Source of the DNA: Escherichia coli O157:H7
GTDB taxonomy: Bacteria > Pseudomonadota > Gammaproteobacteria > Enterobacterales > Enterobacteriaceae
Length of the DNA: 64,000 nt
Reading direction: 5' to 3' (one strand)
Assembly: GCF_013167455.1 (NCBI RefSeq)
Contig: NZ_CP038328.1
The notes under the pieces were generated by a model, which was not told the DNA's origin, made no database searches, and worked only from the letters and a program-made list of their open reading frames with translations. Shown here in pieces: positions 16,460 to 64,000 of this stretch (within the stretch, counting starts at the first letter, position 1; each line of letters opens with the position of its first letter). A program made the position numbers and the translations under genes.

Positions 16460-16546
16460 ATGAAGATCGTAAAGGCTGAAGTTTTTGTTACCTGTCCGGG
16501 GCGTAATTTCGTCACATTAAAAATCACCACTGAGGACGGTATTACA
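16460..16546 (+). pseudogene. rspA: rspA 5' remnant (first 29 codons of the starvation-sensing dehydratase gene), truncated by the prophage junction
   Basis: ATG at 16460 encodes [29 protein letters not shown], the recalled RspA N-terminus; the frame then hits a stop and the antisense strand continues into integrase-like coding sequence. Confidence 0.7.
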
Positions 16547-17223
16547 CCATAAATTTTTGGCTTGCTGATTTCTGCACGCATCGATAAGACGGATGAATTC
16601 CTCCCGCGAAAGAGGATCCGGAATGGTTCTTGATTCCTTTAATGGCGAGATCCCCTTAAACGGGTTATCTGCCAGGTAACCGTTATCAACACCAAACTGG
16701 AACACGGCGTTAAGATTTGTCATGTAATTATTTACAGTTACAGCCGATCTCCCTGGTTGTGTAACAATATAGTTACTTTTGGGGATCTGGTATCCAGTCA
16801 GTAGCTCTTTACGAACCTCCAGTAATTTTTCTTTATTAATCGATGAGGCAAGATTTTTTTCACCGATTATGCTCAGGATATTTTTGATGACGGCACGGTA
16901 TGTGTTGAGTGATGTTTTTGCGACTTCAGTTTCTTTCAGTGCCAGAAATTTTTCAGCCAGTTCTTTTATGGTTAAATCTTGTCGGGCCTCACCAAATTTT
17001 TCCAGATTGCGTGAGGAGGGAAACTGTTTTGCATAGTCGAAAACACCAGTTTTTATTGCGTAACAAACAGAGGCGCGTAGCTCACCTGCAACGCGCCTGT
17101 TTTTTGCTGTGTCAGGAACCCCAGGTTTTCCCTGACTCTTACGCCTTTATAAACAAACCAGATACGTAATTTCCCTCCATGGTTTTCCACGCCTGTCGGA
17201 TATTTCATTTCAACTTCTCTCAT
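16547..17223 (-). pseudogene. Phage integrase remnant: N-terminal half only, internally frameshifted, C-terminal catalytic domain absent
   Basis: Reverse translation from 17223 gives MREVEMKYPTGVENHGGKLRIWFVYKGVRVRENLG then a stop; a second frame (16517..16723) gives integrase-like ...DNPFKGISPLKESRTIPDPLSREEFIRLIDAC...; no tyrosine-recombinase catalytic region precedes the rspA stub. Confidence 0.6.
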
Positions 17224-17242
17224 TAGTTAGTGTGGCTTTTAG

Positions 17243-17494
17243 TCAAGTAAGATGACGTCTTGGTCTTGCTGATGCCTGGCGCTCAATCCAGCGATCAATT
17301 TCTTCCAGGTTGTAAAAGCATGGACTGTTATCCCATGGCATACCGTCATGAGCGACATGCTTATATTCCCTTCCTTCCATAAACGATTTTTCCCGGGCCT
17401 TTTTTAACGTACCTTTTTTTATTCCTTTCAGCGCAATTAACTGCTCTTCGGATACCCATTTGCCGGGAGAGACAATCATGATTACTTCGCTCAT
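17243..17494 (-). CDS. Putative excisionase (Xis-like)
   Basis: 83-aa basic protein immediately upstream of int in the same orientation; assignment is by position and size. Confidence 0.5.
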   Translation of the reverse strand: MSEVIMIVSPGKWVSEEQLIALKGIKKGTLKKAREKSFMEGREYKHVAHDGMPWDNSPCFYNLEEIDRWIERQASARPRRHLT

Positions 17495-17566
17495 CGATTT
17501 CTTTATCTCTTACATCAGACGAGCGCCGGTTGCAGAATACCAGTCACAACCGGCGACAGTTGAACA

Positions 17567-62395: not shown

Positions 62396-62830
62396 TCAGC
62401 GCACAACCAGCACGGAGCACTCTGCGTGACGCACTACAGCTGCGGCGTTGGAACCGAGCAGATAAGTGGTGATATCCGGTCGATGGGAAGCAATGATGAT
62501 CATATGAGCGGGGATCTTCTTCGCCAATTCCAGAATGCGGTCTTTGGGCGAGCCTTCCTCAACATGGACATGCACTCTGTCGGTTGGCAGTTTAAATTTT
62601 TTAATGATCTCTTCCAGTTGCGATTTGGCTTCCGCTTTCAGGTCATCCATTGCCGGTAATTCTGCGGAATACGCTAAACCCAGAGAGGCATAGTAGGGCA
62701 GTGAAGGTATTACCGTCAGGAAATGAACCTCTGCATCATCAATCTTTGCCTCTGCCTCAACGTGGCTAATCACGCGTTGAGTTAATTCTGAATCGGAAAT
62801 ATCGATAGGGACAAGAATCGTTCTGTTCAT
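62396..62830 (-). CDS. uspF: Universal stress protein F (UspF/YnaF)
   Basis: Internal start gives [47 protein letters not shown]..., matching recalled UspF (144 aa). Confidence 0.9.
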
Positions 62831-62931
62831 AAAACCTCCTGTTTTAGTATCCGCATAAAGTGTAACGCCAGATGACACTTTTTGTGTAATGACGGAGTTC
62901 ACATTTTTAATTTAGATCAAAGGAGGAAGAA

Positions 62932-62962
62932 TAAGCAGAAAAAGCCCGCCATAACAGCGGGC
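62932..62962 (-). terminator. Intrinsic terminator of ompN
   Basis: Minus strand: GCCCGC-TGTTATG-GCGGGC followed by TTTTTCT. Confidence 0.6.
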
Positions 62963-62970
62963 AGGAGGAT

Positions 62971-64000
62971 TTAGAACTGATAAACCAGACCTAAAGCGAC
63001 AATATCATCGGTAGAGATGCCGTTGGCAGCGTAGAAACTGTCATCTTCATCCAACAGGTTGATTTTATAGTCAACATAAGTGGACATGTTTTTATTGAAA
63101 TAGTAAGTCGCGCCAACATCGGCGTATTTAACCAGATCTTTATCATCAACACCTGCCGGGTTGTCTGCACCACCGGCAGCGTGCAGGTCACGGCCTTTAG
63201 ACATCAGGAAAGAGACTGCCGGACGCAGACCAAAATCAAACTGGTACTGTGCAGTGACTTCAAAGTTCTGGGTTTTGTTTGCAACAGCATAATCGCTGTC
63301 GCCAAACGGGGTCATATTACGCGTTTCTGAATACATGGTTGCCAGGTAAATATTGTTAGCATCGTATTTTAGCCCAGCAGTCCACGCGTCTGCTTTATCA
63401 CCACCCGCCGCAGTATGGTTAACCTGGTCATTGGTGCGGTCAGAAGAGGTGTATGCCGCACCAGCGCTAAAGCCCATGCCTAAATCATATGTTGTGGAAA
63501 GACCCCAGCCGTCACCGTTTTCATGGCGAACATCACGTCCGTTGTTGGTGCCTTCCTGACCATTACTGGCACCTTCGTTGTTACCTTGATACTGCACCGC
63601 GAAGTTCAGACCATTTACCAGACCGAAGAAATCAGTATTACGATAAGTCGCGACGCCATTGGCACGACCAGTCATAAAGTTGTCTGCATTGGTATAAGAG
63701 TCACCGCCAAATTCAGGCAGCATATCGGTCCAGCCCATAATTACGTCCGTAATCGAAAGAACCGTAATCTGAAAATTTCAGTCCGGCAAATGCCAGACGG
63801 GTCCATGACTGGTTTTTTGAAGATTCAGTGTTGTTTGCCTGAATATTGTATTCCCATTGACCGTAGCCAGTAAGTTGATCGTTAATTTGGGTTTCGCCTT
63901 TAAAACCCAGACGCGCATAGCTCTGGTCGCCATCTTTCGCTGAATTATCAGAAAAATAATGCAGGCCATCAACTTTGCCATACAGATCTAATTTGTTGCC
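62971..64000 (-). pseudogene. ompN: Porin OmpN (OmpC family), frameshifted near 63730-63740; 5' end beyond the window
   Basis: C-terminal frame (62971..63738) ends ...[12 protein letters not shown]; the N-terminal part (...[18 protein letters not shown]...[10 protein letters not shown]) is in another frame and stops just upstream of the junction. Confidence 0.65.

Follow-up and report, generated by a model that had tools for sequence, protein, structure and literature searches.

How can a single prophage come to lie between ynfA on one side and uspF–ompN on the other, two chromosomal flanks separated by 197 kb in K-12 and by 283 kb in strain Sakai? The question is raised by a stretch of 64,000 nucleotides (the window) from Escherichia coli O157:H7 (RefSeq assembly GCF_013167455.1, contig NZ_CP038328.1), in which a lambdoid prophage of 45.6 kb spans about 16.5–62.2 kb. 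An initial annotation of the window had answered it by recombination between two inverted lambdoid prophages, which would have inverted the chromosomal segment between them. We come to much the same answer. The prophage is very probably a chimera, the scar of prophage–prophage recombination that inverted the terminus region. The inversion itself would lie elsewhere in the source genome, and we infer it from the one junction that is visible.

The two ends of the prophage

To what sites do the two flanks belong? In K-12 MG1655 the order on the Rac side is ttcA, intR ... stfR tfaR pinR ynaE, ttcC′ uspF ompN ydbK, and on the Qin side ydfI ydfJ, Qin ... intQ, ynfP rspB rspA ynfA ynfB speG ynfC–ynfE. 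The K-12 order that the initial annotation had assumed is therefore right: uspF–ompN adjoins the tail-fibre end of Rac, and ynfA–rspA neighbours the integrase end of Qin. Its reading of the left flank as ynfA plus an rspA stub also holds, since positions 15801–16545 of the window align, at 98.7% identity and in the reverse direction, with K-12 1,655,800→1,655,056. On the right, 62010–64000 align at 96.4% identity, and in the forward direction, with K-12 1,434,797–1,436,809. One and the same prophage is thus flanked by K-12 reversed on its left and K-12 forward on its right. Farther out on the left, positions 1–13500 match O157:H7 strain ECP19-598 (from 2534971) with 100% identity. The flank assignments are based on long alignments at 96–100% identity and are not chance resemblances. 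The features of the two ends are as follows.

1–16459, minus strand, reversed K-12 orientation: backbone genes ynfM, mlc, ynfK, clcB, dmsD, ynfH–ynfE, ynfD, ynfC, speG, ynfB and ynfA
8622–11048: ynfF, within the left backbone
11106–13532: ynfE, within the left backbone
15928–16254, plus strand: ynfA, the backbone gene nearest the prophage
16460–16545, plus strand: rspA stub, consisting of the gene's first 86 bp (K-12 1,655,141→1,655,056)
16526–17208, minus strand: intQ-type integrase (int′ of Sp12), truncated and frameshifted, 98.5% identical to the interior of K-12 intQ
62171–62196, no strand: Rac-type right attachment (attR) core of 26 bp, TTGTTCAGGTTGTATTGTTCTTTCTT, which is the ttcC′ duplicate of the 3′ end of ttcA; the prophage ends here on the right
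62396–62830, minus strand, forward K-12 orientation: uspF
62971 to the window end, where it is cut off, minus strand, forward K-12 orientation: ompN

The 26-bp core matches the left attachment site (attL) as well as attR of K-12 Rac. Lying beside ttcC′–uspF and accompanied by nleG2-2/6-1/5-1 cargo, it marks this end as that of a prophage at the Rac/ttcA site, the position of Sp10 in Sakai. The opposite end of a Rac-site prophage, intR/xisR beside ttcA, was not found; none of ttcA, intR and recET occurs in the window. The attachment site is that of Rac, but the right-hand parent is an O157 lambdoid prophage residing there and not Rac itself. The annotation of O157:H7 records that match this stretch at 100% gives ompN (62971–64000) as a frameshifted pseudogene.

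The left end is of a different kind. Here an intQ-type integrase end abuts ynfA by way of an rspA′–int′ junction and is followed by the early region of Sp12. The HK97-like head and tail genes and the right end on the Sp11/ydfJ side, which belong to Sp12, were not found in the window. Since lambda-like, Sp11-type late genes run from 36356 onwards and the prophage ends at a Rac attR, it is a chimera, not Sp12.

What can produce such an element? Integration cannot join a Qin-site left end to a Rac-site right end; only recombination between prophages can. In K-12 and Sakai the prophages at these two sites are oppositely oriented across the terminus, so that the joining of ynfA to uspF needs a crossover between inverted repeats. 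When reciprocal, a crossover of this type flips the segment that contains the terminus. The junction in the window joins, inside a prophage, reference flanks that are neither adjacent nor in the same orientation, and its switch of parentage falls in a perfectly identical stretch of 822 bp, itself part of a 6.2-kb inverted homology (96.8% identity, as measured in ECP19-598). We take the dif site of K-12 to lie near 1.589 Mb, with uspF (1.435 Mb) on one side and ydfJ (1.632 Mb) on the other, so that the inverted segment would contain it. The GC skew is weakly positive on both flanks, which fits a terminus-spanning inversion that keeps strand polarity but is too weak to count as evidence.

If one product of such a crossover joins ynfA to uspF, what does the other look like? 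Strain ECP19-198 holds both. Its bridging prophage (in 2422001–2472000) combines the early and lysis regions of Sp12 with the HK97-like late region, sodC and nleG genes of Sp10, next to uspF. Its reciprocal hybrid (in 2650001–2750000) reads ydfI ydfJ′, dinI and nleG of Sp11, lambda-like late region and lysis genes, and then passes into Sp10, ending with the Rac-like early region, recET, xisR, intR and ttcA. Read module by module, the pair is exactly that which would be expected from a crossover between inverted prophages. The late modules of Sp12 and the early modules of Sp11 are found in neither chimera, which points to a history of tandem deletion plus inversion in that strain. The ends of the window's prophage at the Qin and Rac sites, its opposite flanks and the ECP19-198 pair all support the core of the initial annotation, recombination between two inverted lambdoid prophages.

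Might the rspA stub itself be a breakpoint of the inversion? The stub begins exactly at the rspA start codon (1,655,141 in K-12); RefSeq annotates it in O157 genomes as an incomplete coding sequence of 87 bp. From 16544 the window enters the interior of the intQ homologue (K-12 1,652,093→1,651,549, 98.5%), and the rspA′–int′ deletion junction is located at 16544–16546. In K-12 terms 2,962 bp are missing, from codon 29 of rspA to the interior of the integrase gene; the deletion took the 3′ end of the integrase, attL, ynfP and rspB, and left only 86 bp of rspA. Many non-O157 strains have an intact rspA–rspB between the same flank and the integrase. The junction is present at 100% identity in 296 complete genomes, among them EDL933 and the K-12-colinear Sakai (at 2254340–2255540). 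Since it is common to all of these, the uninverted Sakai included, the stub is not the inversion breakpoint. The loss of rspA and rspB is instead an old event of the O157 lineage, independent of the inversion. The remainder of rspA/rspB, which had been expected beside the reciprocal prophage, was removed by that older deletion, and the true reciprocal would be flanked by ydfJ′ and ttcA. With attL absent and the integrase truncated, the prophage is unable to excise.

Modules, joints and their parents

From which prophages were the parts taken? Sakai provides the reference set. It is colinear with K-12 here. Its Rac site holds Sp10, in which a Rac-like early region with recET is combined with an HK97-like head, sodC and, next to uspF, nleG2-2/6-1/5-1. 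Its Qin site holds the tandem ydfJ′, Sp11, Sp12, rspA′ ynfA, in which Sp11 has a lambda-like head and tail and pchB, and Sp12 an HK97-like head. Sp11 and Sp12 point one way and Sp10 the other; Sp10 has up to 15.4 kb in common with Sp12 at 98% identity. Set against these and against the prophages of ECP19-598, the window divides as follows.

17243–35533, plus strand: Sp12-type module, matching Sakai Sp12 and the ynfA-side prophage of ECP19-598
35534–36355, no strand: joint of 822 bp, throughout which the Sp12-type and Sp11-type parents are the same
35711–36280: antirepressor gene, inside the joint
36356–51500, plus strand: Sp11-type lambda-like late module, matching Sakai Sp11 and the uspF-side prophage of ECP19-598
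51500–53250, plus strand: patch in tail genes L and K, with about 105 mismatches to Sp11 and to the uspF-side prophage of ECP19-598
53904–57377, plus strand: J
57445–58044, plus strand: lom
58109–59702, plus strand: tail fibre
59815–61815, plus strand: three nleG effector genes, of nleG2-2, nleG6-1 and nleG5-1 type

Of all comparators ECP19-598 and G5295 come nearest to the window. In ECP19-598 the two parental prophages are on opposite strands at a distance of about 394 kb, with antirepressor copies at about 2.571 and 2.971 Mb. Compared site by site with these two prophages, the window last carries the ynfA-side allele at 35533 and first carries the uspF-side allele at 36356. To the left of the joint, 13031–36340 has three differences from the ynfA-side prophage, and 13001–36340 is identical to Sakai Sp12; another comparison with Sp12 gives this identity over 21540–36340. 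To the right, the reverse complement of the uspF-side prophage equals the window over 35534–64000 except for two conversion patches, with no mismatch over 36356–47633 and 55584–64000. Against Sakai Sp11 there is at most one mismatch per 500 bp from 36356 to about 51900, and from about 59751 to 64000 the window shows no difference from the right end of Sakai Sp10 and the uspF–ompN that follows it. One polymorphism lies in the joint itself: at 36341, 15 bp before the homology of the parental prophages ends, the window has C, and both ECP19-598 prophages, Sakai Sp11, ERL05-0623 and OK1 have T.

The L/K patch has another source. It is identical to the Rac-site prophage of FRIK1989, and from 52251 to 53000 also to L and K of Sp12, a prophage of HK97 type; gene conversion between prophages of different head type would explain such a tract. 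J, lom and the tail fibre are finely mosaic and find a full match only in the uspF-side prophages of ECP19-598, G5295 and FRIK1989. Within J, over 54815–56531, short blocks match Sp11, Sp12 or neither in alternation, and ECP19-598 and FRIK1989 depart from the window in different sub-blocks.

FRIK1989 deserves separate mention. It is colinear with K-12, and its Rac-site prophage (in 1302001–1352000) holds the window's lambda-like late region and nleG/uspF end. Its early and lysis regions are quite unlike those of the window, with a DNA methyltransferase, another RelE/HTH pair, an intact exonuclease and xis, and no antirepressor. The module content of the Rac-site prophage thus varies among O157 strains. 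Among 5,426 complete E. coli assemblies FRIK1989 is the best match to 39001–64000 of the window (99.7%).

Recombination between prophages, as first proposed, thus stands. The two-parent picture that went with it is too simple: there are at least two joints, three parental sources and more than one event.

The remaining features within the modules are listed here; RNAs marked Rfam scored above the gathering score.

Inside 17243–35533: xis, dicB, ydfC, repressor/cro, ydaT, replication genes, DUF968, rusA, a terB-like gene, holin and ydfR
17567–20038, minus strand: ExoVIII-type exonuclease
20682–20733, minus strand: DicF RNA (Rfam)
22018–22489: relBE-type toxin–antitoxin pair, in the Sp12-derived part
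27579–27753, plus strand: sok, beside hokD (Rfam)
29769–30458: Q, in the Sp12-type module
30669–30918: three tRNAs, in the Sp12-type module
31692–31864, plus strand: STnc100 RNA (Rfam)
32002–33852: SASA esterase
34907–35440: lysozyme
Inside 36356–51500: Rz/lysis protein, portal, S49 protease, head decoration, capsid and tail genes
37360–37674: pchB, PerC family
38367–40812: terminase
48698–51310: tape measure

The tRNA at 30669–30744 is called tRNA-Met (CAT) by ARAGORN and tRNA-Ile (ileZ, the lysidine-modified type) by RefSeq and in Sakai; this is a discrepancy between tools, and the sequence itself is not different. A replication-initiator-like gene (23711–24688) is intact in the window; its copy in ECP19-598 has T for C at 24287 and is annotated with an internal stop. 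pchB, a PerC-family regulator of the locus of enterocyte effacement (LEE) island, here resides in the prophage adjacent to ynfA and not in the one that adjoins ydfJ′.

The last step and its alternatives

In what order might the parts have come together? The left third would be a vertically inherited Sp12 integrase end at the Qin/ydfJ site, crippled beforehand by the rspA deletion. The middle would be a lysis, head and tail module of lambda-like Sp11 type, and the right end an nleG cluster plus attR from a prophage at the Rac/ttcA site. These would have been assembled in place by homologous recombination among near-identical lambdoid prophages flanking the replication terminus, catalysed presumably by RecA/RecBCD or a phage recombinase, and an inversion between two such prophages would leave chimeric prophages at the ends of the segment. 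The prophage itself has an ExoVIII-type exonuclease gene (17567–20038); Asadulghani et al. list the recombination function of Sp12 as defective. We lean, somewhat, towards a last step that was a single inversion of roughly 400 kb in a genome like ECP19-598, with its crossover in the 822-bp antirepressor stretch. This is favoured because the nearest relatives by single-nucleotide polymorphism (SNP) are ECP19-598 and G5295.

Several observations weigh against so simple a history. Only one junction of the presumed inversion is visible, and the right flank in the window is just 1.8 kb long. Queried as two 25-kb halves, the exact prophage is absent from the 5,426 complete assemblies, and no record ranks top for both halves. 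The 822-bp joint is found in 22 genomes, and when the uspF-side half of the window is queried none of these is within the 60 best matches. A perfect parent of the late region was not found among the comparators: ECP19-598 departs from the window in the L/K patch, FRIK1989 at 45.36–45.9 kb and in J. SNP patterns were compared with those of seven comparators, and the mosaic of the late region proved too fine to yield a single order of events.

Could the 822-bp joint be something other than the inversion crossover? It may, with a lower probability, be a deletion scar between Sp12 and Sp11 in tandem direct repeat. The inversion crossover would then lie farther right, in the lambda-like head and tail genes at 38–52 kb or in J, the tail fibre or nleG, between an Sp11-type and a Rac-site prophage; the inversion relative to K-12 is still required. 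OK1 shows what the undeleted arrangement would be: ynfA, Sp12-type, Sp11-type ... nleG, uspF ompN nifJ, a tandem intermediate with antirepressor copies in direct orientation 53,883 bp apart and uspF–ompN at the far end. Of the 22 genomes with the joint, the one examined, ERL05-0623, has it in an uninverted ydfJ′ context, and FRIK1989 demonstrates that a Rac-site prophage can hold a lambda-like late region natively. Chen et al. in 2013, as cited in PMC8743559 and PMC7430833, reportedly described spontaneous deletions between Sp11 and Sp12. A deletion between adjacent prophages is also described for FRIK strains as indel-4 (PMC7430833). What tells against a tandem deletion is that ECP19-598 and G5295, nearest by SNP, hold the parental prophages inverted and not in tandem, that J, lom and the tail fibre of OK1 are only about 97% identical to the window, and that positions 34318, 34748 and 34760 differ in ERL05-0623 and Sakai but not in ECP19-598 and FRIK1989. 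Two other routes were considered and set aside. That the lambda-like late region reached uspF by an Sp10 × Sp11 crossover is weakened by the FRIK1989 Rac-site prophage, which carries it natively. A deletion from a same-strand arrangement like that of EDL933 would remove the backbone upstream of ttcA, as seen in ECP19-198; in K-12 this backbone leads on to essential genes, fabI, topA and ribA among them.

Might there have been no recombination, or no large inversion, at all? An assembler could have jumped between two real prophages like those of ECP19-598 in a common repeat. The switch does fall within 822 bp of perfect identity inside 6.2 kb at about 97%, the window is almost base for base the left parent plus the right parent of ECP19-598, and the exact prophage is in no complete assembly searched. 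We nevertheless think such an artefact improbable: at least five genomes, finished independently, contain equivalent ynfA–uspF hybrids, long reads easily span repeats of 0.8–6 kb, and neither the private SNP at 36341 nor the L/K patch is what a simple splice of ECP19-598 would contain. More improbable still is a colinear terminus in which a small block, the late end plus uspF–ompN, was transposed or duplicated to a place beside an Sp12 remnant. With 1.8 kb of right flank the extent of the rearranged segment is unreadable from the window, which leaves some room for this explanation. Yet nifJ/ydbK and continuing backbone come after ompN in each of the comparators examined, uspF is single-copy (a median of one place per genome), and neither joint has a mobile element, both lying inside extended homology. 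A deletion cannot lead from a colinear chromosome to the window either, since the flanks face opposite ways and deletion alone cannot turn one of them round. A single inversion between prophages in a genome like ECP19-598 remains the reading that we prefer.

Occurrence and known rearrangements

How common is the arrangement? Cross-matching the positions of the left junction, the right junction and the long queries in 27 complete O157:H7 genomes, we found that 16 share with the window the placing of ynfA and uspF on one strand, that is, about half of the finished genomes sampled; they include EDL933, 86-24, PA20, ATCC 43888 and OK1. The remaining 11 have the opposite, K-12-like orientation, among them Sakai, ATCC 35150, ECP19-598 and FRIK1989. 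The spacing falls into classes of about 46, 100, 201–226 and 433 kb when the two are on the same strand, and of about 210–283, 394 and 448 kb when they are K-12-like; evidently several different pairs of prophages recombine.

A single prophage of about 45.9 kb bridges ynfA and uspF in five of the genomes, SRCC 1675, ECP19-198, Wll001, 611 and AR-0430. These Sp12/Sp10 hybrids closely resemble the window's prophage: a single bridging prophage, with identical flanks and identical Sp12 early and lysis regions up to 36.3 kb. They differ in having the HK97-like head and tail and sodC of Sp10, and in being about 600 bp longer, where the window has the Sp11-type lambda-like late region and pchB. EDL933 agrees with the window in the relative orientation of ynfA and uspF, but there they are 226 kb apart and bridged by no single prophage. 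ERL05-0623, a derivative by Sp11–Sp12 deletion, has the same 822-bp joint and differs at 14 positions over 14518–52000; its right end reads nleG of Sp11, dinI, ydfJ′ and is colinear with K-12, whereas that of the window reads nleG of Sp10 type, attR of Rac, uspF. Qin and Rac of K-12 share with the window's prophage the same two attachment sites, intQ (98.5%), the Rac attR core and, from Qin, dicB/DicF, relBE, hokD and ydfC. They differ in that each is a much-decayed prophage of its own at its native place, with the segment between them uninverted.

Is such an inversion new? Perna et al. in 2001 are said to have reported a 422-kb terminus-spanning inversion in EDL933 relative to K-12, and Iguchi et al. 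in 2006 (Gene 372:199) reportedly described large prophage-bounded rearrangements of O157:H7. Fitzgerald et al. 2021 (PMC8743559) found such rearrangements across lineages in 72 genomes, biased towards the terminus (Ter), bounded by prophages and associated with repeats of more than 5 kb; they arise in culture and in cattle and can alter the expression of virulence genes. Laboratory derivatives of EDL933 differ by mega-inversions (PMC4824272). Stanton et al. 2020 (PMC7430833) mapped a 1.15-Mb inversion between Sp6 and Sp14 to a 174-bp repeat and described a deletion between adjacent prophages. As would be the case for the window, the published O157:H7 cases involve inverted lambdoid repeats around Ter and chimeric prophages at both ends, and are frequent; the published cases considered here differ in the prophages concerned, Sp6 × Sp14 (1.15 Mb) or the Stx2c prophage (1.2–1.4 Mb). 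The 1.15-Mb inversion of the FRIK804 paper (PMC7430833), considered as a source of the window's junction, is unrelated to it, being Sp6 × Sp14. The prophage-bounded terminus inversion is thus an already documented and common polymorphism of O157:H7, of which the window is one more instance, and the finding raises no new question. As far as the sequence comparisons go, only the module set would be new: Sp12 early region, Sp11-type lambda-like late region and Rac-site end were not found together in the collection searched.

What might the chimera do for its host? It unites the regulatory, replication and Q module of Sp12 with a complete set of Sp11-type lambda-like genes for lysis and morphogenesis, and is fixed directly beside the terminus-proximal backbone. 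That it is a selected or reversibly switching configuration and not a neutral scar seems to us very unlikely. If it were, the expression of pchB and nleG could be altered, or the prophage, packaging in situ, could mobilize adjacent chromosomal DNA. Its wider meaning is more practical. Rearrangements of this kind change pulsed-field gel electrophoresis and optical-map types, and they confound assembly and annotation by synteny. Mismatched prophage ends, as between ynfA and uspF, are a reliable signature of inversion for genome scans. The window is a clean, base-resolved example of the many near-identical lambdoid prophages of O157:H7 acting as portable homology that again and again flips, deletes and reshuffles the terminus region of the chromosome.

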